Shown: positions 13,073 through 61,497, counted from the stretch's first letter. The stretch: DNA of 64,000 nt from a virus (IMGVR_UViG_3300035682_000015), one strand, 5' to 3'. Made by a program: numbers and translations. The notes: generated by a model not told the origin, from the letters alone.

Positions 13073-13390
13073 ATGAAAATTTTAATAACAGAAAGTAAAT
13101 TAGAGAGAGTTGCCATTAATTGGTTGAACGATAACTATGGTAATTTGGAACCATATGAAACTAAAGAGTTTCCTGGGTTAATTCTTTACTTAGAAGGTAG
13201 AACAGTAATTATTGAATATAATAAAAAAAATAAAGATGTTTATGTGAATTATGAAAAGATTTGGAAGTTTTTTAAATCCTATTTTAGTTTGGAAAATGAA
13301 CAAATTCAACATTTAATAAAGATGTGGATAGAGGAGAATTACAAATTAAAAGTAAAATCTGCGTCTTATAATAATGTGTATTTACCATAA
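13073..13390 (+). CDS. family-C paralog (MKIxITESK...WLxxNYG...YNKKNG)
   Basis: Paralogous to 20176, 20554 and 49405 genes. Confidence 0.55.
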   Translation: MKILITESKLERVAINWLNDNYGNLEPYETKEFPGLILYLEGRTVIIEYNKKNKDVYVNYEKIWKFFKSYFSLENEQIQHLIKMWIEENYKLKVKSASYNNVYLP

Positions 13391-14997: not shown

Positions 14998-15573
14998 ATG
15001 ATTGATATGAAATTAAACGAACAATTAACAAAAATTAAATCAATGATGGGAATCAATGAAAACAAACAATCTTATCCATACTCTTGTGCTATGTTATACT
15101 TTAACCCGGATTCGGTTACAGAACTACATAGTAAAATAAACCCGGAGGACCTATACACAGAAGAAGATGGGTTTGGTTTAGAACCGGAATCACACTGTAC
15201 GTTACTATACGGATTACACGATAATGAGGTTGATATTGAAGATATTATTAACGTAATAAACAAATACTCTTACACAAATTGTAAGGCACATAACCTATCT
15301 TGTTTTAACAATCCAAAGTATGATGTGTTAAAATATGATATAATGGGGGATAATCTAAGTGAAACTAATGAGGAGTTAAAACAATTCCCATTCACAAGTG
15401 ATTACCCGGACTATCACGCCCATATGACCGTGGCATATCTTAAACCGGGTAAAGGTAATCATTATATTAATATGTTGGGTGATGAATACAAAGAAATGGT
15501 AATGACACCTCAACACGCTGTGTATTCAAGAACTGATGGTACCAAACACAAAATACCGGTTAGGTTTACATAA
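14998..15573 (+). CDS. 2H phosphoesterase superfamily protein (LigT/Acb1-like)
   Basis: Two H-x-T-x motifs 76 aa apart: HCTLLYGL (aa 66) and HMTVAYL (aa 142), matching HxTLxFxG / HxT[LV]A of LigT-type 2H enzymes. Confidence 0.55.
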   Translation: MIDMKLNEQLTKIKSMMGINENKQSYPYSCAMLYFNPDSVTELHSKINPEDLYTEEDGFGLEPESHCTLLYGLHDNEVDIEDIINVINKYSYTNCKAHNLSCFNNPKYDVLKYDIMGDNLSETNEELKQFPFTSDYPDYHAHMTVAYLKPGKGNHYINMLGDEYKEMVMTPQHAVYSRTDGTKHKIPVRFT

Positions 15574-15646
15574 CAATCTAACTCAGATTTACAATTCGGG
15601 TAATACCTGAGGAGTAGGAGTGACGGTCAGGAAAGACTGACAACTT

Positions 15647-15799
15647 GGTCAAGTGGCGAAAATGGTAGACGATAAGCACAGTGCGTGTGTGAGAGTTGTG
15701 ATGTAAGCTGGGGTGTACAACCCGGAGATTCCAATTATGGATTCAGTGGCGAACGCAAATAGCCATTAACTCGTACAGGTTCGAATCCTGTCTTGACCA
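15647..15799 (+). tRNA. tRNA gene with ~65-nt insertion (candidate intron); type-II (Leu-like) D-arm; anticodon unassigned
   Basis: Perfect 7-bp acceptor stem GGTCAAG/CTTGACC. T-arm ACAGG-TTCGAAT-CCTGT. D-loop GGCGAAAATGGTAGACG. Discriminator A. 153 nt total. Confidence 0.55.
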
Positions 15800-15839
15800 C
15801 AAATATATAAAAAAAGTTTGGATATATAAAAAATAGTAT

Positions 15840-15847
15840 TATCTTTG
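15840..15847 (+). promoter_or_regulatory. -7 promoter element TATCTTTG (copy 1 of duplicated 47-nt promoter unit)
   Basis: Identical unit at 16246-16292. Confidence 0.5.
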
Positions 15848-15874
15848 TGCTCAATATTAATTAAAAAAAAGACT

Positions 15875-16252
15875 ATGACAAAAACTCAGGAATATTTGAA
15901 AAACAAAAAAATACAAGAAATGGGTTTACCTAAATTGTATGTTGTTAAATCTTCCCCTGATGGGGTTGAAAAACCTATTGAGAGACAGGTTGTTGAAATC
16001 GAAGAAAATGTTGCGTTTAGAGGTAAAGAAAGATTACCGATTGACCGATACAAAGTTGAAAATGGTTATCCTTATGAAATAGATTTTCTTAGAGGTGAAA
16101 ACACTACAAAAGAAGATGGATACGGTTCAGGGATAGGTGATTTATGGGGTTGGTCGTATTTTTCAACCTTTTTAGAAGAAGAGGCTAAGATGTATTACAA
16201 CTTAGAGTTAAGTAGAGTTCAAAAAAAATATAATAAAAGTTTAACTATATAA
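15875..16252 (+). CDS. hypothetical protein
   Basis: ATG MTKTQEY; track start is TTG inside promoter. Confidence 0.5.
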   Translation: MTKTQEYLKNKKIQEMGLPKLYVVKSSPDGVEKPIERQVVEIEENVAFRGKERLPIDRYKVENGYPYEIDFLRGENTTKEDGYGSGIGDLWGWSYFSTFLEEEAKMYYNLELSRVQKKYNKSLTI

Positions 16253-17445: not shown

Positions 17446-17712
17446 ATGAATATATTAGATATTGAAAAATTAAAACAACTTATATCAAGAACTGATATAA
17501 GTGGTAACGATAAGGTAAAATGGCTTACAGACTTTATAGATGGTAGAGAATTTCATCAACAAGAAAGAAGTTATAGTGAGGAAGAAGTATTTAGATTAAC
17601 ATTAGAAGCTTTAGACTTAGGAATGAGAATCAGGCAAGACCAATTAAATGGTTATTCTGAAAAATCTGGTAAAGAATTACATGAAGAATGGTTTGAACAA
17701 TTTAAAAAATAA
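17446..17712 (+). CDS. stand-alone C-module protein (QQERSYSEEE...WFEQFKK)
   Basis: Same module as C-termini of 28226, 29076, 30037 and 31280 genes. Confidence 0.5.
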   Translation: MNILDIEKLKQLISRTDISGNDKVKWLTDFIDGREFHQQERSYSEEEVFRLTLEALDLGMRIRQDQLNGYSEKSGKELHEEWFEQFKK

Positions 17713-17749: not shown

Positions 17750-17965
17750 ATGATAGAAGATAAGATTGGGGGTCTAAATGATTCCGAAATTAACTTTCTA
17801 AAAGATTTTGGTACAGACCCTGTGTTAAGAAAGTTTATGACATCTGAAGAAATTAAGGTTTCAAATAAATTAGTTAAGAAAGGATTGATGGAAAAAGGAA
17901 TGTCTGACGATAAAAAGTCAAATGTTGTTTATTATGTTGATTCATTTATATATACAAGATTATGA
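17750..17965 (+). CDS. hypothetical small protein
   Basis: 71 aa. Confidence 0.4.
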   Translation: MIEDKIGGLNDSEINFLKDFGTDPVLRKFMTSEEIKVSNKLVKKGLMEKGMSDDKKSNVVYYVDSFIYTRL

Positions 17966-18054
17966 TAGTAAATACAATTGAATTCCCAACACCAATAGGG
18001 GTAAAATGTAATATGATGCCGTTCTATGGCAATACGAAGGTAGATAAAATTAAA

Positions 18055-18085
18055 CAAAGGAGATGTAACATTCTCCTTTTTTTTA
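18055..18085 (+). terminator. intrinsic terminator
   Basis: AGGAGA-loop-TCTCCT + T8, then TATATTTATATATATG start. Confidence 0.55.
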
Positions 18086-18096
18086 TATTTATATAT

Positions 18097-18594
18097 ATGA
18101 ATTTACAAGAGAATATAATTAGAATACAGGAAATGATGGGGATTATCTCTGAGGCTAAATCTTCATATACTGTATCTCAGATAAAGAAGGGGTTAAATAA
18201 GTCAGAAAACGACAAAGATATAACAATTAATACGAGTATTGATAATGTTATAGATAATATTGACCAATTTGAGTTTGAGATTGGTTCTGTAGAATCATTT
18301 TTAGATGATGAGAACAGTTTCACATCGGATTCGTTGGTGGATAAACTTATATCTTACGTCAAAGATAAGAATTTAAATATTGATATATCTAAATTGATTG
18401 AGTACAACAATTATAGAAAGGAGTACGATAAGAATGATGATAAAGTGTTTGAACTTTTATATAACACACACCCTGATGATGACTATTCAGAGGAGATAGA
18501 TAGGTTACGTGATAGAAATGATGAGTTATATAAGTATTTTGATTTACTAAAACAGGAAACCTTAAAGATTAAACAAGAGATTATTAATTTATAA
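18097..18594 (+). CDS. MNLQENI-leader family protein
   Basis: MNLQENIIRIQEMMGIISE. Confidence 0.5.
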   Translation: MNLQENIIRIQEMMGIISEAKSSYTVSQIKKGLNKSENDKDITINTSIDNVIDNIDQFEFEIGSVESFLDDENSFTSDSLVDKLISYVKDKNLNIDISKLIEYNNYRKEYDKNDDKVFELLYNTHPDDDYSEEIDRLRDRNDELYKYFDLLKQETLKIKQEIINL

Positions 18595-20175: not shown

Positions 20176-20529
20176 TTAATTAATATGATATTTAGTGAGA
20201 TGATACTTACCACACTCATTACAATGCCAAGTAGTATATGTAACTTCTGTAACGTGTTGATTATAATTTTCTTCAATCCAAGGTATAAAGATTTTATTCA
20301 AGTCGTGACTATCAACACTAAATATAGAAACTAAAAATTGTTGTAGTTCATCATCCTCTATTGTGACAATACCGTAATCGTTACGAAATGTAAAAATGGT
20401 TGTCCCGTCTTTTTTTTTATAGTAAACTATTCCGTGACTATTCTCCATTCCAATTAAATCACCATAGTTATCGTCTAACCATTTAATAACAATATTGTTT
20501 CTTCTATTCTCTGTTAGTATTATTTTCAT
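20176..20529 (-). CDS. family-C paralog
   Basis: MKIILTENRRNNIVIKWLDDNYGDL. Confidence 0.55.
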   Translation of the reverse strand: MKIILTENRRNNIVIKWLDDNYGDLIGMENSHGIVYYKKKDGTTIFTFRNDYGIVTIEDDELQQFLVSIFSVDSHDLNKIFIPWIEENYNQHVTEVTYTTWHCNECGKYHLTKYHIN

Positions 20530-20553
20530 ATTATCTTAATTTTTAATGTTCCT

Positions 20554-20877
20554 TCACCCCCAATTTGATAACTCAGTAGTAGAAAGTATTCTTGTTACTC
20601 TTAAATTGTAACGTTCCTCCACCCATACCTTTGTTAAACTCTCAATTTGTTGGTTAGACATACTAAACATACGTTCAAAAAATGACCAAATTTCTTCATA
20701 AGTCACATAAACATACCCATTTTTTTTATTGTAATCAAAAATTATTTCTTCACCTTTTCGGTAAAAAATGTGGTTAGGAAATTTTTTTGGTTCATATGGT
20801 TTCAAATCACCATAGTTATTGTCTAACCATTTAATGGCGACTTTTTCTATTTTACTCTCAGTTATTATTACTTTCAT
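20554..20877 (-). CDS. family-C paralog
   Basis: MKVIITESKIEKVAIKWLDNNYG...YNKKNGYVYV; rc TATCTTTG at 20895-20902. Confidence 0.55.
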   Translation of the reverse strand: MKVIITESKIEKVAIKWLDNNYGDLKPYEPKKFPNHIFYRKGEEIIFDYNKKNGYVYVTYEEIWSFFERMFSMSNQQIESLTKVWVEERYNLRVTRILSTTELSNWG

Positions 20878-20960: not shown

Positions 20961-21590
20961 ATGGAATTAATAGAATCGTTACAGTGGAGATATGCCACCA
21001 AGAAAATGAATGGGGATAAAATCCCACAAGATAAATTAGATAGAATCTTAGAGGCAACAAGATTGGCTCCGAGTTCATATGGGCTAACACCTTATCAGGT
21101 AATCGTGGTAGAGGACCAAGACTTAAAGGAACAATTGGTGGGAGCGTGTTATAACCAAACACAACTAAAAGATTCATCGGCTGTATTGGTATTCGCGGTG
21201 TGGGATACAATAGATGAAAATGAGGTGGAGTATTACATTAAGACTATGGCATTAGAAAGAAATATCCCGGTAGAAGTATTAAATGATTTCAAAGGAATGA
21301 TGTTAGGGACATTATCTAATATGACAGAGGAACAAAAAACTATATGGGCACAGAAACAAACGTATATAGGATTAGGATTCTCATTAGTGGCATCAGCAGT
21401 AGAAGGAATAGACTCTACTCCAATGGAGGGATTTGTACCATCACAGGTGGATGAGATATTAGGACTAAAAGAATTAGGGTTAAAGTCCACATTAGTTCTT
21501 ACGTTAGGATATAGAGATACAGAAGGAGATTCACTATCTACTATGAAGAAAATAAGAAGAGATGGTGAGAATTTCTTTATAAGAAAATAA
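20961..21590 (+). CDS. NAD(P)H nitroreductase family protein
   Basis: RYATKKM..DKIP..LDRILEATRLAPSS.GLTPYQVIVV nitroreductase N-terminal signature. Confidence 0.75.
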   Translation: MELIESLQWRYATKKMNGDKIPQDKLDRILEATRLAPSSYGLTPYQVIVVEDQDLKEQLVGACYNQTQLKDSSAVLVFAVWDTIDENEVEYYIKTMALERNIPVEVLNDFKGMMLGTLSNMTEEQKTIWAQKQTYIGLGFSLVASAVEGIDSTPMEGFVPSQVDEILGLKELGLKSTLVLTLGYRDTEGDSLSTMKKIRRDGENFFIRK

Positions 21591-26982: not shown

Positions 26983-27495
26983 ATGGTTGATTATCAAACT
27001 TACGAAGAATTACCTAAACGGATTCAATACTATGTGAACTCAATAAAAGAAACGGGTTATGACGATATTAGAAGTTTTCAATTCCCTTGTAAATATTTTG
27101 GGGGTAATTCTTTTGGATGTAGTATTTGGATTGATGCTGAAGAAATGGTAAAAGGTCTCATTCCTTACCGAGGTGTGATTCAAAATATGATAACGAATAG
27201 TTTAACAAAAAATATATTCAATATTGGGTATTTGCATATTTCTGTTCATTATAAAAACAAACAACAGTTGGGTAAGAAATTCCTCCCGGAATTAAAAAAA
27301 CGATTAAAGGAATCTCTTGCCGGTAAATATATTCATTCTGTTCGTTTTGATGAAAACTCTCGTAACAATGACCCCGAAGTTTTTGTTGTGTTAAGACGTG
27401 ATAACGATATTGAAACTTGGGGTATTGTGAAAAATATTCTTGAGGATTTCAAAATTGAAAAAGGTTATCCTAATTTGTATGTTAAAATTTCTTAA
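26983..27495 (+). CDS. hypothetical protein
   Basis: ATG MVDYQTYEEL 18 nt after motif. Confidence 0.5.
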   Translation: MVDYQTYEELPKRIQYYVNSIKETGYDDIRSFQFPCKYFGGNSFGCSIWIDAEEMVKGLIPYRGVIQNMITNSLTKNIFNIGYLHISVHYKNKQQLGKKFLPELKKRLKESLAGKYIHSVRFDENSRNNDPEVFVVLRRDNDIETWGIVKNILEDFKIEKGYPNLYVKIS

Positions 27496-27546
27496 TATTT
27501 GGCCGTATGAAATGTTTGTTATATCTTTGTCGGAAATAAATTGATT

Positions 27547-27690
27547 ATGAGAGATAGAATAAAAAAATGGTGGAATAGGACTTGGTCCAATTGGGAGGTT
27601 GATACTAAGAGTAAGTGGTATTTTTATATTATACTTAAGAGAACATCCAACGATGGTTTAATCCAATTTAAAAAAATAAAAACTGGGGTA
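27547..27690 (+). CDS. small basic protein
   Basis: 47 aa; ATGA overlap with next. Confidence 0.3.
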
Positions 27691-28217
27691 TGAAAAACAT
27701 TTATTTAATTCCGACAGATAAACGGACTCGATTACATTATGACCACACCGGTTTATTTTTATCTCACCATTATCAGGTAAGTAAGGAGATTAATTCAATT
27801 GTTGAAGGCAGATATATCTACATTACATCGGATGAATACATTGGGTTGAATTGGTATATTGATGGTGGCTGGGTAAGAAAGGGTGTTATTGATGATAAGG
27901 ATTATTGGTCTGTTAGAAAGGATTATAAAAAAATCGTTATAACCAATGACCCCAAGTTAATTAAGGATGGCGTTCAGGATATTGGGGACGGTGTGATGGA
28001 TTGGTTCATTGAGAACCCCACCTGTGAATACTTCAATATTGAACAGTACAATTCATATGGGATTGATAATTGGAAGTACTTGGTAACTCTTCCAACGGAT
28101 AAGATTGACTTTGAAAAGGAGTTATCTAAATGGGGTTACAATAAGGGTAATTCAATTGACGTTGAGATTTTGGTTAATGAGATACTTCCAAAATTATTTG
28201 AACAATTTAAAAAATAA
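27690..28217 (+). CDS. modular paralog 1 (N-module MKNIYLIPTDK + diverged central module)
   Basis: Tandem array member. Confidence 0.55.
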   Translation: MKNIYLIPTDKRTRLHYDHTGLFLSHHYQVSKEINSIVEGRYIYITSDEYIGLNWYIDGGWVRKGVIDDKDYWSVRKDYKKIVITNDPKLIKDGVQDIGDGVMDWFIENPTCEYFNIEQYNSYGIDNWKYLVTLPTDKIDFEKELSKWGYNKGNSIDVEILVNEILPKLFEQFKK

Positions 28218-28225
28218 ATAAGATT

Positions 28226-29071
28226 ATGAAAAACATACACGTATTAGGAACAGATAAACCAACTTTTTTACATAAAAGTACAAAAACAGGTATTTTAATG
28301 AAATCATCCGCTTGTATTAATGATATGAAACAAGCACAAGGAATGAACATTTACATCACTTCTGATGAAATAGTTACAAAATATTCAAATGGTTTGTATT
28401 TTATTGATATTTACACAAACACAAGACATATATTTTCACCGATTTATATTAATAAAGATACTATTGCTTTTGGAAAATTTCACACATATATGAATGATGG
28501 TGGTATGTGTAAAAAAATCATCCTAACAACAGACCAAGACTTAATCAAAAATGGTGTACAAGCTATTGATGATGAGTTTTTAGAATGGTTTGTTAAAAAT
28601 CCAAGTTGTGAAAAAATTAGAACTTATTTGACTAAAGTTTTACAAAGTGGTAATCCAACATTTTATAAAGATGATTACAGAATAATCATTCCAAAAGAAG
28701 AACATAAATGTACTTGTGAAAATGGACACCCATATAACAATCTTTGTTGTAAAATACATGGTAAATTCATAAAAGAAGAACCTAAACAAAAATATAAAGA
28801 CTGTAATGGCAATTTAACAGATTGTACTTGTATAGAAGATACTATTGAAATGAAACAAGAAACACTTGAAGAAGTAAGAGATTTATCATATTATAAAGCT
28901 AATGCTGAAGAAGATTATTTAGCAGTTCCAATAAGCGTATTGAGATATATTTCTCAATTAGAGCAACAAGAAAGAAGTTATAGTGAGGAAGATTTAGAAG
29001 TAGCTTATTTTGAAGGTAGAGAAGGATTATATTCATTCAATGATTGGTTTGAACAATTTAAAAAGAAATAA
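28226..29071 (+). CDS. modular paralog 2 (N + central + Cys-rich insert + C-module)
   Basis: MKNIHVLGTDK ... ILTTDQDLIKNGVQAIDDEFLEWFVKNPSCE ... QQERSYSEED..WFEQFKKK. Confidence 0.55.
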   Translation: MKNIHVLGTDKPTFLHKSTKTGILMKSSACINDMKQAQGMNIYITSDEIVTKYSNGLYFIDIYTNTRHIFSPIYINKDTIAFGKFHTYMNDGGMCKKIILTTDQDLIKNGVQAIDDEFLEWFVKNPSCEKIRTYLTKVLQSGNPTFYKDDYRIIIPKEEHKCTCENGHPYNNLCCKIHGKFIKEEPKQKYKDCNGNLTDCTCIEDTIEMKQETLEEVRDLSYYKANAEEDYLAVPISVLRYISQLEQQERSYSEEDLEVAYFEGREGLYSFNDWFEQFKKK

Positions 29072-29075
29072 AATT

Positions 29076-30035
29076 ATGAAAAACATACACATTTTACCAA
29101 CAGATAAACCAAGTAGGTTATGGATGACTAAATTAGGTAATCTAACAAGATGCCACGATATAAAACCTATTAAAGAAGCATTAGGAAATAATGTAAATAA
29201 CTACATCACTTCTGATGAAGAAATTAAAGAAGGAAATTGGTTTGTAAAACCTAAATATTCAAAAGCAATTAAAATTGGATATGAGATTAGTCAAGCTGAT
29301 TCATCTTTTTTTGGAGGGTATGGTTATGATTGGACTGATTGTAAAAAAATCATCTTAACAACAGACCAAGACTTAATCAAAGACGGTGTACAAGCTATTG
29401 ATGATGAGTTTTTAGAATGGTTTGTTAAAAATCCAAGTTGTGAGTTTGTTGAATTGAATAGAAACTATAATCGGGGTAATGGAAAATATTATTACAAAAT
29501 CATCATTCCAAAAGAAGAAGCTAAACAATTATTTACAGACTACCCAATTATTGAATTAGGTGATGACGAATTTAAAGAAGCACCAATAAGAGAATGTGAA
29601 TTACTTTCTTTTGATGATGATGATAATAAGTACTGCTATGTAAAAGTAGGAGGTATTGAAAAAGAAATTAAACGTTGTTATATATACCCACAAAAAGGTA
29701 GATGCGGTGACGTTAATTGTGTTTCAATTAAAGAAATAAAAGAGTTGTTAAAAGAAGAACCTAAACAAGATGCTATTGAATATTCATTAAATGCTTTTAA
29801 AGTTCCAAAAGAATATTTTGGAAAACAAGAAACACTTGGAGAAGCATTATCTGAACATATAAAAGATATAAAATATCCTACTCTAATACAATGTGCTAAA
29901 TTTGGTGCTAAATGGCAACAACAGAGAAGTTATAGTGAGGAAGAAGTTTTAGACTTATTACAAGATTTTGCTAATGACTTATCTGATAATGTAATTAATA
30001 TTAAATTTTGGTTTGAAAAATTTAAAAACAAATAA
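29076..30035 (+). CDS. modular paralog 3
   Basis: MKNIHILPTDKPSRL; central module 97% nt-identical to paralog 2. Confidence 0.55.
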   Translation: MKNIHILPTDKPSRLWMTKLGNLTRCHDIKPIKEALGNNVNNYITSDEEIKEGNWFVKPKYSKAIKIGYEISQADSSFFGGYGYDWTDCKKIILTTDQDLIKDGVQAIDDEFLEWFVKNPSCEFVELNRNYNRGNGKYYYKIIIPKEEAKQLFTDYPIIELGDDEFKEAPIRECELLSFDDDDNKYCYVKVGGIEKEIKRCYIYPQKGRCGDVNCVSIKEIKELLKEEPKQDAIEYSLNAFKVPKEYFGKQETLGEALSEHIKDIKYPTLIQCAKFGAKWQQQRSYSEEEVLDLLQDFANDLSDNVINIKFWFEKFKNK

Positions 30036-30036
30036 G

Positions 30037-30261
30037 ATGAAAGAAACACTTGAAGAAGCTGCTGAAAGAAGATTTCCAAGTAAAACGGAAATGTACGATG
30101 TTTTTATTGAAGGCTCTAAATGGCAACAAGAACAAGACAAGAATAAGTATAGTGAGGAAGATATGCACAATTTAATGGATGAATACCAAAATTGGTTATT
30201 TAATACTAATACCGTAGTATTAACTTTTAGAGAATGGTTTGAACAATTTAAAAACAAATAA
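30037..30261 (+). CDS. stand-alone C-module protein
   Basis: KWQQEQDKNKYSEEDM...WFEQFKNK. Confidence 0.45.
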   Translation: MKETLEEAAERRFPSKTEMYDVFIEGSKWQQEQDKNKYSEEDMHNLMDEYQNWLFNTNTVVLTFREWFEQFKNK

Positions 30262-30265
30262 AATT

Positions 30266-31276
30266 ATGAAAAACGTACACGTACTACCAACAGATAAAAC
30301 GAGTAGGTTAGTTTTAGATGTAAACAATAATTTAGCATTAGCCTTTAATAAATCTATTGAAGAAAATGCGCTGTATAAAAGAACCATCTACATCACTAAT
30401 GATGAAGAAATTAAAGAAAATACCAATGTAAAAGACAAATGGGTAATTTCTGAATATGGTTTTGTTGTAAAAGCAGATAGGATTGAAAACAATTACCTTA
30501 TACACTCAACTGGAGGTTCTAATTTTTTACATCATTATAAATTTATAATTATGACAACAGACCCTCAACTTATTCAAGATGGTGTACAACCTATTGATGA
30601 TGAGTTTTTAGAATTTATAGTTAAGAATCCAAGTTGTGAGTGGGTTGAGGTTGACAAAAATTGGAATTACCCATTAGATAAAAGTTGGGAATATAAATTA
30701 AGAATCATTCCAAAAGAAGAACCTAAACAACTATTTACAAAAGGAGATAAAGTATTGTTTACAGGAAAAATGTTAGATGAAAATGTTGTTGATAAAGTAG
30801 TAACAGTATTTTATACATTAGGTAGAGGAGAGATAGATGATATGTCAGATATAATGGATGAATACACTCACGTTTATAGAGTTTGGAATAAAGATTTAAA
30901 ACACACTTCAAAAGAAGAACCATTAAGTTTTGAAGAATTTAGAAAAATTGCTTCTAAAGAATTACTTGAAAAATTTGATACTGATTGTTTAGAATATTCA
31001 GAAGATGGAGATTTTGATAATTACTTTTACGCTAATTGTAAATATTGGGAAAGTAAACTAAAAGAAGAACCTAAACAAGAATTTGGTTATACTACTAAGA
31101 TGGGTGTTGAGGTTAAGGATGAGATGGTTAGACCACTTATGGTTCCAAAGAAATATTTTGGTGAGGTGGAACATCCGGATTATAGTTCAGTGTTTGATTT
31201 TTTATCCGATAAGGATTACTTAACAGACAAACGAGAAGTTATTGAGAAAGAATTTAAAGAATATTTAAAAAAATAA
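30266..31276 (+). CDS. modular paralog 4
   Basis: MKNVHVLPTDKTSRL; PKEEPKQ linkers x2. Confidence 0.55.
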   Translation: MKNVHVLPTDKTSRLVLDVNNNLALAFNKSIEENALYKRTIYITNDEEIKENTNVKDKWVISEYGFVVKADRIENNYLIHSTGGSNFLHHYKFIIMTTDPQLIQDGVQPIDDEFLEFIVKNPSCEWVEVDKNWNYPLDKSWEYKLRIIPKEEPKQLFTKGDKVLFTGKMLDENVVDKVVTVFYTLGRGEIDDMSDIMDEYTHVYRVWNKDLKHTSKEEPLSFEEFRKIASKELLEKFDTDCLEYSEDGDFDNYFYANCKYWESKLKEEPKQEFGYTTKMGVEVKDEMVRPLMVPKKYFGEVEHPDYSSVFDFLSDKDYLTDKREVIEKEFKEYLKK

Positions 31277-31279
31277 AAT

Positions 31280-31753
31280 ATGAGTAAATGTTATGACAAC
31301 CCCGAGTTTGACGACCAAGAACCTGAAACACAAAATACATGGAAACAATCTATACCAAAAGACAATTTTGACAATGCTTTGGAAAGTTTCAAGGAATCGT
31401 TAATTAAGAAGTGTGACCCCACCCTTAGTGAGAAGTTGGAAAAGGTTGTCTCTAAGGAACCAAGTAAGTTTTGGTCCGAGAGTGATGAGAGGGTTAGAAT
31501 TAAAGAAGAGAAAAAACTTAGAGAGGCGTTTGATGAAATATACGACTCAATTGATTTTAGAGAATTTGACTTTGCGTCGTTTAAGTTGGGAGTTAAATGG
31601 GGACAACAACAAGACGAGAATAAGTATAGTGAGGAAGATATGAGAGATGCTCATCAAATGGGTGCTATTTTTGCTTATGGAAAAAAGGAAGTAACAAGAG
31701 AGGATAGAGTAAAACATTTTGAGGGATGGTTTAATCAAATTAAAAATAAATAA
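31280..31753 (+). CDS. protein with C-module
   Basis: KWGQQQDENKYSEEDM...WFNQIKNK. Confidence 0.5.
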   Translation: MSKCYDNPEFDDQEPETQNTWKQSIPKDNFDNALESFKESLIKKCDPTLSEKLEKVVSKEPSKFWSESDERVRIKEEKKLREAFDEIYDSIDFREFDFASFKLGVKWGQQQDENKYSEEDMRDAHQMGAIFAYGKKEVTREDRVKHFEGWFNQIKNK

Positions 31754-32367
31754 TGGAGTATTGTGAATTACCTAAGGATTCGTTATTAACGAAACTACCC
31801 AATTTTAATTATGTTGGTGAGGATAAGAAGAGATTGAATGTTGTAATTGCCGGTGGTGCTGTCCGGGATAGTTTATTTGGTGACGATTATAGTGATATCG
31901 ACATATTTGGTCTTACCAAAGGTGAATTAGATTCATTTGTGGAGATAAATCTGTCAAAATCACAAGGATATAAGATGGTTTATTTCAACGAGAACCTAAG
32001 AACTTACAGAAAAGGGAAGATTAAGGTTCAAATTATCTACCGAGAGTACGAAAAACTAACAGATATTATTGATTTGTTTGATTTTACCGTATGTCAGTTT
32101 ATGTATGACGGTGAAAAGGTCATTTGTAACCCCTCCGGAATACTAGATGTTCATCATAAGAGGATTATTATCAACCATTTGGAACCTTTATTTGTTTTTG
32201 ATTCGTTAAGACGGGTTCAAAAGTACGTTCAGAAGGGATATACTATCTGTAATGGGGGAATTAAGGACATTTTGGACAAATGTCGGGAATTAACACAGGA
32301 ACAATACGACGAAAACGTAGAATTTTACCCAAATACTGAGGAATATAGGATAATTAGGTTCGATTAA
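31753..32367 (+). CDS. polymerase-beta-type nucleotidyltransferase, CCA/poly(A)-polymerase head-domain-like
   Basis: VVIAGGAVRDSLFGDDYSDIDIF matches the hGGxVRD...DhDh signature of tRNA nucleotidyltransferase/PcnB head domain. Confidence 0.55.
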   Translation: MEYCELPKDSLLTKLPNFNYVGEDKKRLNVVIAGGAVRDSLFGDDYSDIDIFGLTKGELDSFVEINLSKSQGYKMVYFNENLRTYRKGKIKVQIIYREYEKLTDIIDLFDFTVCQFMYDGEKVICNPSGILDVHHKRIIINHLEPLFVFDSLRRVQKYVQKGYTICNGGIKDILDKCRELTQEQYDENVEFYPNTEEYRIIRFD

Positions 32368-32385
32368 AATTAAAAAAAATAAGAT

Positions 32386-32556
32386 ATGAAAACAATTTTG
32401 TGGTTTATAGTTAGTCATTTGGTGTTATATGTGTTGGGAAGTTTTATTGCTTGGGATTTGAACCCTTTGAATTGGTGGTTATTCACCTCATCCTTTGGTA
32501 GGGTGTTGTTTGTTATTATTGAATTGTTTTGGATTGGTAATTCTTTGAGTGATTAA
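32386..32556 (+). CDS. small membrane peptide
   Basis: 56 aa, two hydrophobic segments. Confidence 0.3.
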   Translation: MKTILWFIVSHLVLYVLGSFIAWDLNPLNWWLFTSSFGRVLFVIIELFWIGNSLSD

Positions 32557-49174: not shown

Positions 49175-49412
49175 AGAAAAATTTATTGAAAAAGTAATTG
49201 AAAATGTTAAACACCTAACGGGAAAAATTATTGAATTTATACCTATGGAATTTAACGTTGGTATGTTTATAATAATTGATGGTGTTTCTAAGGGTTTAAC
49301 TAATTCAGTTTTACGTGATTATAAAAACACTATCGATTATTATGAAATAGATATTATCACGGATTTTAGTAATATGATTATTAAAGAATTTAATTTGAAA
49401 TCAAATGACTAA
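49167..49412 (+). CDS. hypothetical small protein
   Basis: ATG MDKEKFIEK overlapping upstream stop. Confidence 0.4.
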   Translation: MDKEKFIEKVIENVKHLTGKIIEFIPMEFNVGMFIIIDGVSKGLTNSVLRDYKNTIDYYEIDIITDFSNMIIKEFNLKSND

Positions 49413-50010
49413 ATTAGAGAATCTTTGTATTAAGTGGTTGAATGAAAATTTTAACCCTATGGAACCATTCATTATGGAAGAATACCCTGATTATATTTTT
49501 CATATGAAAGATGGGAAATGTATTTTACAATACAATAAAAAAAATGGGTATGTTTATGTGAGTTATAGAGAAATTTGGAAATTTTTTGAATCCTATTTTA
49601 GTATGTCTAACCAACAAATTAAGGACATTACAAAGATATGGGTGGAGGAATACTACAAAGTGGGGGTAACAACAACTAAATTACATGAGAGAATTGGAAG
49701 AAGAATGGTGGAGGAACACTACAAAATGGGGGTGACAACAACTTTTGGTTTGGATAGATTGAATTACAGTAAGGTGGAGGAACACTACAAAATGGGGGTA
49801 ACAACAACTGGATTAATCCATCAACACCACCTAAGTCAGGTGGAGGAACACTACAAAATGAGGGTAACAACAACACTATCTGATTTTGGTAACGCAACTC
49901 TACCGGTGGAGAAACAATACAAAGAAATTCAAACAACCAACAACCAATTACAATTTTACTCTGAAAAGGATGTTGAAGAATTATATGAACAAAAAACAAA
50001 TGGAAAATAA
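49405..50010 (+). CDS. family-C paralog with C-terminal 22-aa tandem repeats (VEEHYKMGVTTT)
   Basis: N-terminal domain paralogous to 13073 and 20554 genes. Confidence 0.55.
   Translation: MTKLENLCIKWLNENFNPMEPFIMEEYPDYIFHMKDGKCILQYNKKNGYVYVSYREIWKFFESYFSMSNQQIKDITKIWVEEYYKVGVTTTKLHERIGRRMVEEHYKMGVTTTFGLDRLNYSKVEEHYKMGVTTTGLIHQHHLSQVEEHYKMRVTTTLSDFGNATLPVEKQYKEIQTTNNQLQFYSEKDVEELYEQKTNGK
49642..49941 (+). repeat. 66-bp tandem repeat, 4 good copies + 1 degenerate
   Basis: Unit starts at 49642, 49708, 49774, 49840, 49906. Confidence 0.85.
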
Positions 50011-51951: not shown

Positions 51952-52125
51952 ATGGGACTTATAAATAATCTTTATGCTGTGTATGAAAAATCACCGGCAC
52001 ACGGGAGCAAAGAACATAATGTAATTTTGGCTCCTTTCAAAACTAAAGAAGAGGCAGAACAAAACAGAATTAAATACGGTTATAACACCGATAATTATTA
52101 CGTAGATATTTTGAAATATGAATAA
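51952..52125 (+). CDS. hypothetical small protein
   Basis: 57 aa, stop overlaps thyA start. Confidence 0.3.
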   Translation: MGLINNLYAVYEKSPAHGSKEHNVILAPFKTKEEAEQNRIKYGYNTDNYYVDILKYE

Positions 52126-53266
52126 ACTAGATAAACAATACACAGACCTTCTCCAAGACATTCTTGACAACGGAGTAACAAAACAAGACAGAACAGGTAC
52201 AGGGACAATCTCAGTATTCGGAAGACAAATACGTCACGATATGAAAGATGGTTTTCCTCTTTTGACTACAAAGAAAATGCCATTCAAAACAATCGTAACA
52301 GAACTTCTTTGGTTCTTACGAGGAGATACCAACATTAAGTTTTTGGTTGATAATAATTGTCATATTTGGGATGGTGATTGCTACAAATCTTATAAACAAA
52401 GTATTTTAGAATCCTTTGATAGATTATCAAATGACCCCGTAATAGATGCGATGCCACCTAGAATATTAACACAAGAAGAATTCACCAACAAAATCAAAAC
52501 AGATGATGAGTTTGCTAAGAAGTGGGGTGAGTTAGGTCCTGTGTACGGTAAGCAATGGAGAAAGTGGGGTTATGATAGTGATAAATGGAGAGAAGACTAT
52601 AACAAATTACAATTTGGTTCTAAAGAAGAAATTGAACACCTTAGTAAAAAAGGTATAGACCAAATCACAAACCTAATCAACGACCTTAAAACAAATCCAG
52701 ACTCAAGACGATTGATGGTTAATGCTTGGAATGTTGGAGAATTAGACCAAATGGTTCTTCCACCTTGTCATTATGGATTTCAAGTTTATACAAGAGAGTT
52801 GAGTTTAGATGATAGAAAAGATATTTGGAATAAAAACAATTTCAGTCAAGATATGTCGTGGCATAATATGGAAGAACACGATATTATGGATTTACTAAAC
52901 GATAATGACATCCCAAAACGAGCAATCTCTTTAATGTTTAATATGAGGTCAAATGATGTTCCATTAGGGCTTCCATTTAATATATCATCTTATGGTTTAT
53001 TATTAGAAATTATTGGGAAAATGGTTAATATGATACCTGACGAATTAATTACTAATTTAGGTGATGCTCATATCTATAAAAACCAAGTAGATGGTGTTAA
53101 AGAACAATTAACAAGGAAACCATTTGAATTACCTAAATTAGTTATGTCTAACCAAATTAATTTTAATGAAAGTGTTGCTGAATTTTTGAATAGTTGTCTA
53201 ATAACTGATTTTATTGTTGAAAATTATCAATCACATCCAACCATAAAAATGCCATTATCTAACTAG
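52118..53266 (+). CDS. thyA: thymidylate synthase family (ThyA, long-insert type); possibly pyrimidine hydroxymethylase
   Basis: DRTGTGT, ELLWFLRGDTN, LGPVYGKQWR, LPPCHYGFQ (catalytic Cys), DVPLGLPFNISSYG; L. casei-like small-domain insert plus extra ~35-aa insert. Confidence 0.8.
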   Translation: MNKLDKQYTDLLQDILDNGVTKQDRTGTGTISVFGRQIRHDMKDGFPLLTTKKMPFKTIVTELLWFLRGDTNIKFLVDNNCHIWDGDCYKSYKQSILESFDRLSNDPVIDAMPPRILTQEEFTNKIKTDDEFAKKWGELGPVYGKQWRKWGYDSDKWREDYNKLQFGSKEEIEHLSKKGIDQITNLINDLKTNPDSRRLMVNAWNVGELDQMVLPPCHYGFQVYTRELSLDDRKDIWNKNNFSQDMSWHNMEEHDIMDLLNDNDIPKRAISLMFNMRSNDVPLGLPFNISSYGLLLEIIGKMVNMIPDELITNLGDAHIYKNQVDGVKEQLTRKPFELPKLVMSNQINFNESVAEFLNSCLITDFIVENYQSHPTIKMPLSN

Positions 53267-53322
53267 TTTTTTCATAATTTTATGATATTTATATTAAAGA
53301 GTAATCCTTAAACTAAATCAAT

Positions 53323-54153
53323 ATGAAAAAGTTTTTAATCTATGAAATAAAAAACAATATAAATGGTAAATCTTATATTGGACAATATAGTGGTGAGTCA
53401 TTTGAAAAGTATTTTGGAAGTGGAAAATTAATTAAGTTATCAATAAAAAAATATGGGTTAGAAAATTTTTCTAAAACAATTTTAGAAGAGTGCTTTAATA
53501 AAAATGAATTGAATGAAAAAGAAATTTTTTGGATAGATAAATTAAAAACTATTGAAAATGGTTATAATTTGACTGAAGGTGGAACAGGGGGTGATTTGTC
53601 TGAATTTATAAAGTATGGTGAGAATTGGGTTGAAAAACAAAGAATCTCCACAAAAAAATATTGGGACAATCTAACTGAAGATGAAAGAAAAAAAAGAAGT
53701 GAAATTGTTTCAGGTGAAAAAAATGGGATGTATGGTAAAGATGGATTTTGGAAGGGTAAAAAAATACCAATAGATATTATTAAAAAGTCATTGGAGAATA
53801 GAAGAAGTTACGATAAAGAACAAAACCCAAATTGGAAAGGTGGTGTTACATATGTTTATTGTGAATGTGGTAAAAGAATAGGTTATGGTCACATTCATTG
53901 TAACAAATGTAGACCTAGAACTAAAAACAATAATCCATTTTATGGGAAACAACATTCCGAAGAGACTAAAAAAAAATTAAGTGAAAAAAGGAAAGGGGTA
54001 AAACCAACAAATATGAAACCGGTAATGATTGATAATATTATTTATGAAAGTTTGGCGGAAGCGTCAAATATACTTAAAATTCCAATGGTTACAATTCGTT
54101 GGAGAGTGAAAAGTAATAATGAAAAATTTAATAATTACCAATATAAAGAATAA
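53323..54153 (+). CDS. GIY-YIG homing endonuclease
   Basis: IYEIKNNINGKSYIGQ ... NGYNLTEGGTGG; NUMOD-like repeats; Cys4 zinc finger CECGKRIGYGHIHCNKCR. Confidence 0.75.
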   Translation: MKKFLIYEIKNNINGKSYIGQYSGESFEKYFGSGKLIKLSIKKYGLENFSKTILEECFNKNELNEKEIFWIDKLKTIENGYNLTEGGTGGDLSEFIKYGENWVEKQRISTKKYWDNLTEDERKKRSEIVSGEKNGMYGKDGFWKGKKIPIDIIKKSLENRRSYDKEQNPNWKGGVTYVYCECGKRIGYGHIHCNKCRPRTKNNNPFYGKQHSEETKKKLSEKRKGVKPTNMKPVMIDNIIYESLAEASNILKIPMVTIRWRVKSNNEKFNNYQYKE

Positions 54154-60666: not shown

Positions 60667-61497
60667 ATGAAAAACACAAAAACTTACCACGAGTTGGTAC
60701 AAAAATTAAGAACGTTCTTCGTAAATAAGAACTTTATTGAGGTTCCGACCCAATCAAGATTATCTATTTTAGCTGCTTGTGAAAACCCACACTCAGTAAA
60801 AACCTTTGAATATGGGGGTGAAATTTGGCCATTACCACAAACCGGGCAAATGTGGTTAGAATTGGAATTATTGAAGAATCCTGAATGGGATGGAGTGTTC
60901 TGTATTTCAACATCATATAGAGAAGAGAAAAATCCAATCCCGGGTCGTCACGAATTAATCTTTCCCATGTTTGAATTTGAATCAAAGGGCGGTATGCTTC
61001 ATTTACTCGTATTAGAACGTGAATTATTACAATATTTAGGTTTCTCAGAACCAGTTCCCGTAGATTACGAACAAGTTTGTAAAGAATATGGAGATGTTTC
61101 TATTTTAGAAGATGAACACGAATCGAGAATGTGGAAAGAAAAAAGTGAGGTTATATCATTACAAAACTTTCCAATTAGAACAAACCCATTTTGGAATATG
61201 AAACACGATTCAGATAACATCTTCAATAAGGTTGACGTAATCCTTTTTGGTCAAGAAACTATTGGTTCTGCTGAAAGAAGTTGTGATGTTGAAAAGATGC
61301 GAGAGATGTTCTATACAATTGAAGGTGGTGGTTACTCTCAGAAATTATTTGAATTATTTGGAAAAGATAGAGTTGAGAAAGAATTAAAAGAATTCTTATC
61401 TTTGGACTTTTTCCCAAGATTCGGAGCCGGAATTGGTTTAACAAGATTGGCAAGAGCTTATGAATTAAATCAAAAAGTTTTGGAAGTTATAGAATAA
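60667..61497 (+). CDS. class-II aminoacyl-tRNA synthetase catalytic-core paralog (EpmA/GenX- or AsnA-like), no anticodon-binding domain
   Basis: Motif 1 FFVNKNFIEVPTQ; motif 2 YREEKNPIPGRHELIFPMFEFE; motif 3 RFGAGIGLTRLARAY. Confidence 0.6.
   Translation: MKNTKTYHELVQKLRTFFVNKNFIEVPTQSRLSILAACENPHSVKTFEYGGEIWPLPQTGQMWLELELLKNPEWDGVFCISTSYREEKNPIPGRHELIFPMFEFESKGGMLHLLVLERELLQYLGFSEPVPVDYEQVCKEYGDVSILEDEHESRMWKEKSEVISLQNFPIRTNPFWNMKHDSDNIFNKVDVILFGQETIGSAERSCDVEKMREMFYTIEGGGYSQKLFELFGKDRVEKELKEFLSLDFFPRFGAGIGLTRLARAYELNQKVLEVIE

Follow-up and report, generated by a model that had tools for sequence, protein, structure and literature searches.

To our knowledge, the exchange of hypervariable segments at conserved motifs in phage genes is well documented only for host-recognition proteins. 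In the gp38 adhesins of T-even phages, conserved glycine-rich motifs separate the hypervariable segments, and exchanges occur in or near these motifs (Trojet et al. 2011, PMC3157838). Here we describe a locus of comparable design in a 64,000-nucleotide (nt) stretch of DNA from the virus IMGVR_UViG_3300035682_000015 (hereafter the window, taken at its full length). The locus is a six-gene tandem expansion (G1 to G6; Table 1), with one dispersed gene encoding a C-terminal module only, of a very large phage-specific family whose proteins are built from an N-terminal domain (N-domain), optional middle modules, and a small C-terminal module (C-module). The gp38 adhesins are its closest analogue in design: both have short conserved motifs parting hypervariable segments, chimeras formed near the motifs, and a large pool common to phages. 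However, there is no sequence or fold relationship between the two, the family is non-structural by context and does not lie beside the distal tail-fiber gene, and it has tandem arrays, stand-alone C-modules, and fusion and splitting at stop/start junctions. The family shows an adhesin-type design of blocks and cassettes in apparently non-structural, early-region genes. We think it probable, with a good deal of reservation, that these are early-region accessory genes of variable binding specificity, a function that we infer, and that they evolve by recombination at their conserved blocks.

Two further systems resemble the locus in part. The internal-protein (IP) locus of T4-type phages and the hyperplastic regions are clusters of small accessory genes in which the 5′ end and the intergenic junctions are conserved; related phages differ in the content of these clusters, which have been linked to counter-defense. 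Clusters of small accessory genes, a conserved 5′ end, conserved junctions, and a content that differs from one related phage to another are also found here. However, what the family conserves is a folded domain of ~125 amino acids (aa) and a C-module, not a short capsid-targeting peptide, and residues 3-8 of G3 are modeled as one of the N-domain strands, a weak argument against a cleaved capsid-targeting leader. The Bro-N and KilA-N families of large DNA viruses combine a conserved N-terminal domain with variable C-terminal parts, are multicopy, and include stand-alone domains. The present family similarly joins a conserved N-terminal domain to variable parts, with several copies per genome and stand-alone domains, but it is acidic rather than DNA-binding in character and its variation lies in inserts inside the domain. 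Membership in the Bro-N/KilA-N/ANT group was considered and rejected, as there was no Pfam match to Bro-N or KilA-N.

The N-domain is ~125 aa of mixed strands and helices, and a multiple alignment showed three framework blocks in it: block A (MKNIHxLPTDKPSRL), block B (NIYITSDEEIKEGDW), and block C (KKIILTTDQDLIKDGVQAIDDEFLEWFVKNPSCE). The variable segment between blocks A and B is called V2, and that between blocks B and C is called V1. The N-domain is followed by a conserved YKIIIPKEEPKQ linker and then by the optional small middle modules, and K/E/P-rich linkers (IIPKEEPKQ) connect it with the C-module. The latter is a helical unit of ~75 aa and is itself a mosaic, with KQETLEEA, a variable stretch, GAKWQQERxYSEEEV, a second variable stretch, and WFEQFKKK in that order. 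A preliminary description of this DNA had proposed an array of six genes assembled from three shuffled cassettes, termed the N-, central, and C-modules. The tandem array of six consecutive genes was confirmed: all are on the + strand, tightly packed with intergenic gaps of 1-8 nt, and the same six gene lengths appear in public gene calls on identical contigs. The free shuffling of three cassettes was not. The ‘N’ and ‘central’ halves always co-occur, both in the window (G1, G2, G3, and G5) and in 214 of 217 relatives, namely, 100/100 N-domain open reading frames (ORFs) from viral loci and 114/117 database proteins, the remaining three being N-terminally truncated. The two halves are thus the conserved blocks at either end of a single domain. 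Profile hidden Markov models (HMMs) made from the window copies detected the N-domain in those same four genes only, and the C-module only in G2, G3, G4, G6, and the dispersed ORF. The two stand-alone C-modules that had been noted, G4 and the dispersed ORF, were recognized by both BLASTP and HMM. In G1 and G5, no C-module was detectable by HMM; these genes have tails only (the degenerate EFKEYLKK in G5), whose likeness to the C-module is limited to its last 6-8 residues.

The order N-C was the usual one among the top 120 homologs, with N-X-C (X being a middle domain), N-N-C, N-N-N, X-C, and N alone as variants; C alone also occurs. In the fused N-N(-N) proteins (e.g., P0035 and P0022), an internal ‘MKNIH’ marks each unit boundary, and therefore the junction is where tandem genes fuse and split. 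In G3, the middle domain (residues 149-222, ~74 aa) is 36-39% identical to gp418 of PA5oct-like Pseudomonas jumbo phages, a stand-alone hypothetical protein of 101 aa whose gene in PA5oct lies within the long terminal repeat, an early/terminal-repeat region (L100 1998-2303). Small stand-alone phage domains have evidently been recruited as beads between the N- and C-domains. AlphaFold modeled the N-domain alone with a predicted local distance difference test (pLDDT) score of 65 and full-length G3 (143 sequences) with 71 (N core 80-92, C-module 73-88, middle 55-66). In the G3 model, conserved T/S-D residues are placed at strand ends of the N core, the C-module is predicted as four helices, and the blocks fall exactly on conserved secondary-structure elements.

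The conservation of the framework extends to the DNA. A ~104-nt block at 28508-28611, within what had been called the central module, shares 97% identity with 29340-29443, 78% with 30536-30639, and 65% with 27924-28027 by repeat finder, in agreement with the graded divergence reported for it. The 79-nt gene junctions, each consisting of a C-module tail, a stop codon, AATT, and ATG AAA AAC, are 76-90% identical among copies. A 43-mer junction sequence was found with no mismatch at 29048 and with one at 30238, where none was expected from 100 shuffles. The junction conservation noted at first thus holds at these two sites, with coordinates that were off by 1-2 nt; the first junction (28197) carries an indel, so it does not fit the 43-mer, and is still 76% identical over 79 nt. 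An 18-nt motif absent from the preliminary description, AAAGAAGAACCTAAACAA, encodes the KEEPKQ linker and has five copies confined to the array (inside G2, G3, and G5) versus 0.01 expected. The repeats of the array are real and far beyond chance. By hand inspection, the downstream ATG at the G1/G2 and G2/G3 junctions lies in the -1 frame of the upstream gene, which is open across the A-rich junction TTTAAAAAGAAATAAAATTATG; the spacing of the G4/G5 junction is like these two, so the same -1 frame arrangement is expected there. As regards programmed -1 frameshifting at the junctions, the junction is short and has no canonical slippery heptamer in phase.

We also counted how often a residue shared by two genes is encoded by the same codon, with the expectation derived from observed codon usage. 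Identical codons were in large excess for G2-G3 (65/72 against 38 expected), G2-G5 (43/53 against 27), and G3-G5 (62/77 against 40.5), with P<1e-5 in each case. G1 was at expectation with all other paralogs: 28/49 with G2 (25.5 expected), 27/51 with G3 (27), and 26/48 with G5 (24.9). The blocks of G2, G3, and G5 thus share recent DNA ancestry even though their variable segments cannot be aligned, and G1 is an old, diverged paralog. As G1 is at codon expectation, the protein framework tolerates synonymous change. The same excess was found well beyond the window. Over 4,413 N-domain pairs from different viral contigs without detectable similarity in their flanks, 80.7% of the codons for shared residues were identical versus 56% expected, and four-fold sites behaved likewise (A 0.97, T 0.86-0.97, S 0.90-0.96). 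Framework DNA identity was 81% over 2,775 pairs, with 1,312 pairs at 85-92%, whereas V1 and V2 were at 55% and 59%, respectively, values to be compared with 53% for shuffled sequence (95th percentile 62%). Framework blocks, linkers, and stop/start junctions are therefore conserved at the DNA level, synonymous sites included, between paralogs and between otherwise unrelated phages, and the variable segments are as dissimilar as random sequence.

Such conservation could mean that the blocks are in the first place nucleic-acid elements, e.g., recombination, regulatory, or packaging-related sites or RNA structures, with protein constraint secondary. Conserved synonymous sites in phages that share no other DNA similarity, and a DNA-conserved junction that spans a stop codon, a spacer, and the next start codon, are what this explanation would predict. 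However, promoter-like and terminator-like sites were at chance level in our scans, the blocks coincide exactly with secondary-structure elements of the model, and G1 keeps the protein framework with randomized codons; the protein is therefore conserved without the DNA sequence, although a recombination-promoting role of the blocks is still compatible with this. An RNA element was rejected as a candidate, there being no Rfam match. We regard a primary role as nucleic-acid elements as improbable.

Direct comparisons of loci showed that the variable segments are exchanged as cassettes, with breakpoints in the framework blocks. The family genes of loci L027 and L052 are 97-100% identical over their full length except in V1, where 106 nt in one are replaced by an unrelated 45 nt in the other, with breakpoints at EEIKEGD and KKIILTTD. 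Between L034 and L035, V2, V1, a segment after the N-domain, and one variable stretch of the C-module are replaced, and the flanks are 93-100% identical. Assortment is extensive: 147 unique N-domains comprise 91 V2 types and 120 V1 types, one V2 type is paired with 30 different V1 types, and of the 20 V1 clusters that have several members, 19 are found with at least two V2 types. The V1 of G3 itself is found elsewhere on an unrelated V2. In the C-module of P0005, the first half is G3-like and the second half is G4-like.

These exchanges are difficult to reconcile with ordinary tandem duplication, in which the V segments would be drifted, unconstrained loops and the blocks would stay alike through purifying selection and AT-rich codon bias. 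The low identity of the paralog proteins (only 31-35%), a G1 that resembles an old duplicate with saturated synonymous sites, the stability of the array in its population (see below), and a strong codon bias for K, D, E, and Q would all be expected from duplication and drift. However, the excess of identical codons was measured against observed codon usage, with four-fold sites included; the L027/L052 swap of V1 occurred in a background that is 97-100% identical; the same V1 cassettes are found on different frameworks; and V segments that differ in length by tens of residues, with random-level identity, adjoin framework that is 85-97% identical. Plain duplication followed by drift is largely refuted here, and as an account of the locus it is quite unlikely. 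A diversity-generating retroelement (DGR) was also rejected as the source of the variation. No reverse-transcriptase Pfam match was found in the window ORFs scanned (not all of them) or in the gene tables of identical contigs, the existing repeats are the conserved blocks and not the variable ones, and V segments that cannot be aligned and differ in length by tens of residues are not what adenine substitution can yield.

Whole genes are also gained, lost, fused, and split at conserved junctions. The site of the window array is empty in L012, a related phage in which most backbone proteins share 58-92% identity with those of the window. L012 carries its own array between homologs of the window genes 20961-21590 and 14998-15573, on the strand opposite to theirs, and has an extra N gene beside the homolog of 17962-18594, where the window holds its dispersed C-only ORF. 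A pair of minus-strand genes at 20.2-20.9 kb of the window occupies the spot where L012 carries its array. In L024, one family gene sits exactly between a stop codon and the next start codon, and there is none at this place in L044. A single N gene within ~10 kb was the rule among 79 viral loci (66 of them); the other 13 hold two to four, in many cases accompanied by stand-alone C genes. The copy number of the window (four N and five C) is at the high end. The identical, non-shuffled gene order that would have spoken against a recombining family was not seen in relatives. The proposal of a recombining, hypervariable accessory family is thus borne out by the V1 swap, the assortment of segments, the differences in copy number, site, and orientation, and the codon excess, with the correction that the conserved cassettes are not what moves: the units that move are whole genes, optional middle domains, and the variable segments that separate the conserved blocks.

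Mobility of this kind raises the question of a new free-standing selfish nuclease similar to homing endonucleases, in which a metal-dependent active site would be made up of conserved acidic N-core residues (T-D, S-D-E-E, T-T-D-x-D); different DNA targets would be recognized through the inserts, the Zn-ribbon-like middle domains, and the C-module; and the DNA identity across phages would reflect horizontal spread. Several observations fit: the exact intergenic presence/absence in L024 and L044, members at differing sites and orientations in related phages, sporadic copies with several in some genomes, and the retention of D47, E48, and T95-T96-D97 even in distant Cellulophaga phage relatives. 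The layout is also like that of I-TevI, with a conserved N-domain, a linker with Cys-rich, Zn-finger-like inserts, and a small helical C-domain, in genes that are sporadic, intergenic, and variably present, and there is one natural fusion, N-N-NUMOD4-HNH-AP2 (P0051). However, the family shares with homing endonuclease genes only this free-standing intergenic presence/absence, not a catalytic domain (GIY-YIG, HNH, LAGLIDADG, PD-(D/E)xK, EDxHD) or a basic protein. In keeping with the initial remark that no catalytic motif could be recognized, there was no nuclease Pfam match at E<=1 in the 41 members scanned, and the I-TevI family was not matched either. The proteins are acidic, with a median isoelectric point (pI) of 5.04, compared with 9.48 for the I-TevI-like protein and 9.16 for the endonuclease VII of the window (~5 versus ~9.5 in the I-TevI comparison), which is an indirect indication only. 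The HNH fusion, the only Pfam domain in longer family members, occurs in 1/120 proteins and has the appearance of a homing endonuclease gene that entered at the IIIP linker and replaced the linker and the C-module, rather than of a working partnership. Finally, internal cassette swapping is atypical for homing endonuclease genes and sets the family apart from I-TevI. A selfish nuclease is, on balance, unlikely.

The array is stable within its own population. The G3 protein was found on 24 contigs, of which five loci from separate assemblies were compared; the 19 others were flagged as similar places. All five are 100.000% identical to the window over 27001-32500 (5.5 kb), and an actively rearranging locus is therefore not supported. 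The whole phage is nearly clonal in this population (99.86-100% identity over 10-21 kb), and because of this overall clonality, the invariance argues only against rearrangement visible in consensus assemblies and says little on relative rates. The sole structural difference among these near-clonal contigs was a 23-nt indel in L002, near the start of a nitroreductase-like gene (~20.9 kb in the window), and L004 differs from the window by a single mismatch in 10.7 kb. In this respect, the locus differs from the Neisseria pilE/pilS and Borrelia vlsE systems, which switch at high frequency within a clone from silent donor copies. Cassettes flanked by DNA-conserved blocks and paralogs that could serve as donors are common to both, but every copy in the present family is an intact gene, and no variation was seen within the population.

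We propose that homologous recombination or gene conversion at the conserved blocks, acting between paralogs of one genome and between co-infecting phages, would homogenize the framework while re-assorting an old and diverse pool of inserts. A tandem array would give a phage several specificities at once as well as local donor sequences. The products may be non-structural, probably early proteins whose inserts set binding specificity in conflicts between phage and host or between phages, for example, in anti-defense, host takeover, or exclusion; this is the weakest step of the proposal. The conserved N core and the C-module would supply a common activity or docking surface. A bolder form of the proposal, possible but rather doubtful, is that the family is a hitherto unrecognized, programmable-specificity scaffold with which lytic Bacteroidota phages engage in intracellular conflict (e.g., anti-defense or exclusion), perhaps with a new fold, whose blocks, linkers, and junctions are kept identical in DNA, by second-order selection or by constant exchange, as recombination joints that re-assort a pool of thousands of cassettes common to the phage metapopulation. 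The family would then be the non-structural equivalent of adhesin shuffling.

Several points weigh against the proposal of an accessory family diversified by block recombination. With a single N gene within ~10 kb at 66/79 loci, an array is not required for diversification. The array is invariant in its own population, so the exchange rate is evolutionary and unseen within the population. Some of the V1/V2 combinations could be chimeras that arose at the conserved blocks during metagenome assembly; this does not affect the reality of the variant sequences or of the window array, for which different pipelines gave an identical assembly. Synonymous-site conservation might stem from selection on the DNA or RNA itself. 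The pLDDT values of 65 and 71 are only moderate, and the absence of a fold match is weak evidence of a new fold. As for function, neither a known domain nor a fold match nor an informative fusion partner was found, and early expression is something we infer from genomic context only.

The family is large, and none of the libraries searched annotates it. Among 1.84 billion representatives searched exhaustively by profile, 8,093 family clusters at 50% identity were found at E<=1e-3 and 3,445 at E<=1e-30. G3 has at least 8,000 database relatives among the matches listed, none with a Pfam domain, and the C-module profile alone matched >7,800 proteins, the top matches being stand-alone proteins of 70-160 aa. 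In IMG/VR, at least 406 loci carry the family, on contigs of 4-309 kb. In 185,579 species genomes, only 12 loci were found, all on contigs of metagenome-assembled genomes, and about half of these are labeled Flavobacterium, Flavobacteriales, or Sediminibacterium. The family is phage-only, and its carriers are uncultured phages, probably of freshwater Bacteroidota. When the seven proteins of the window were searched against Pfam-A, PHROGs v4, NCBIfam, and PADLOC, no match passed the curated cut-off, and 41 N-domains and 35 C-modules scanned singly matched only DUF3666 (6/41, best E 5e-4; G2 scored 18.6 bits, under the 25-bit cut-off). A match to phrog_15656 (E 6e-6) covers just 63 aa of G3. A sequence profile search of the PDB returned only a 21-residue chance match to DprA (E 0.12), Foldseek against the viral models of BFVD returned uncharacterized phage proteins only, and an earlier description of the family was not found in the literature.

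Blastn of the locus against cultured phages gave no match. By tblastn against 50,697 phage records, the only matches besides that of the X domain to PA5oct were to hypothetical proteins of Cellulophaga and Bacteroides phages, and with a consensus query these were weak. The N profile confirmed gp027 of Cellulophaga phage phi38:1 and gp143 of phi17:2 as distant relatives; both retain the LPT, LT.DE..GDW, and ATTD motifs and a ‘YS..E ... W.xEN’ C-terminus. The gene numbering in the phi38:1 transcriptome paper differs from that of RefSeq (PMC5335546). Foldseek against viral models added a distant relative in Tenacibaculum phage PTm1. These cultured homologs (phi38:1 gp027, phi17:2 gp143, and PTm1) make the question of function testable. 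If it is true that the inserts set specificity against host defenses or rival phages, the family would represent a large and so far unexplored field of the phage-host arms race in aquatic Bacteroidota. The family could also serve as a natural scaffold for displaying variable loops, and its synonymous conservation across otherwise unrelated phages makes it well suited to clean measurements of gene flow and concerted evolution in environmental phage populations.

In the eight contexts examined, family genes are part of long series of small, uncharacterized genes that all point one way, with RNA ligase or RtcB, polynucleotide kinase, metallophosphatases, thioredoxin, and homing endonucleases scattered among them. 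These contexts bear on a possible role of the proteins in the virion, in host recognition or decoration, in which they would be functional analogues of gp38 adhesins or head fibers and their inserts would bind cell-surface receptors. The alternation of conserved blocks with hypervariable segments, exchanged within or close to the motifs as described for gp38 (PMC3157838), and a similar size range recommend that explanation, and the distant structural relative in PTm1 comes from a phage that has head fibers. However, none of the eight contexts has a structural gene beside the family member, and RNA-repair, nucleotide-metabolism, and small early-type genes are found instead; there is no match to a PHROGs tail-fiber or adhesin family; and stand-alone C-modules of 74 aa and fused N-N-N proteins fit poorly. 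A virion adhesin is very improbable. In three independent phage lineages, an RNA-repair set is found upstream of the family gene, at a distance of a few small genes (Table 1); it consists of a metallophosphatase, an AAA_33 kinase, and an RNA ligase, or of RtcB and a NinI-like phosphatase. A GIY-YIG homing endonuclease gene interrupts the RNA ligase gene of L101. No RNA-repair set adjoins the window array.

Table 1 Positions of the family genes, their parts and repeats in the window, and of RNA-repair contexts in other phages
Feature	Position	Strand	Description
Decayed remnant of C-module 3′ end	27644-27682	+	WF.QFKKK-stop, just upstream of G1; repeat finder and sequence
G1	27690-28217	+	175 aa; N-domain and short FEQFKK tail
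G1 parts	block A 27690-27734; V2 27735-27815; block B 27816-27857; V1 27858-27929; block C 27930-28028	+	
G2	28226-29071	+	281 aa; N-domain, Cys-rich middle 28709-28843, C-module 28844-29068
G2 parts	V2 28271-28348; V1 28391-28513; block C 28514-28612	+	
G3	29076-30035	+	319 aa; N-domain, X domain 29520-29741, C-module 29811-30032
G3 parts	V2 29121-29198; V1 29241-29345; block C 29346-29444	+	
G4	30037-30261	+	74 aa; stand-alone C-module
G5	30266-31276	+	336 aa; N-domain, two middle modules 30734-31114 split by KEEP linkers
G5 parts	V2 30311-30385; V1 30428-30538; block C 30539-30640	+	
G6	31280-31753	+	157 aa; unique N-terminal extension, then C-module 31508-31750
Dispersed stand-alone C-module	17446-17712	+	88 aa
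Gene junction	28192-28270	+	copies 29042-29120, 30232-30310
KEEPKQ linker motif, 18 nt	28772-28789	+	copies 29511-29528, 29751-29768, 30713-30730, 31061-31078
RNA-repair context, L101	1934-8852		
RNA-repair context, L103	4019-9170		
RNA-repair context, L104	1634-7357		Cellulophaga phage phi38:1

At the head of the array, the C-module remnant upstream of G1 looks like the relic of an older unit junction. A small ORF at 27541-27693 (+), also upstream of G1, ends with this decayed 3′ end, GATGGTTTAATCCAATTTAAAAAAATAAAA. At the other end, the stop codon of G6 overlaps the ATG of the next gene, 31753-32367 (+), which encodes a nucleotidyltransferase-like protein matching phrog_1614 and phrog_4400. 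A precomputed table labels this gene PF26128 Gad2 (anti-Gabija family), and a second Pfam scan gave no match. A copy of it with 80% DNA identity is found at 15424-16063 of the related phage locus L010, ~4.4 kb downstream of its family array.

Elsewhere, the phage of the window, with a GC content of ~30%, encodes a thymidylate synthase, an I-TevI-type homing endonuclease, an endolysin, and endonuclease VII. The first two are adjacent, at 52118-54153 (+): the thymidylate synthase has 382 aa compared with 266 positions in the Pfam model, i.e., ~100 extra residues, and is directly followed at 53323-54153 by the I-TevI-type enzyme, a GIY-YIG homing endonuclease that carries NUMOD3, a Zn finger, and a DNA-binding domain. 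A search of the whole 64-kb window revealed no tRNA genes; a 276-aa protein encoded at 60667-61497 (+) matches the class II aminoacyl-tRNA synthetase core (PF00152, E 6e-14; phrog_29758, E 2e-94). Finally, a single ORF of L012 (13601-13942) matches three window ORFs, 20176-20877 (-), 13073-13390 (+), and 49405-50010 (+), at 49-68%, and the window therefore holds at least one further dispersed paralog family.

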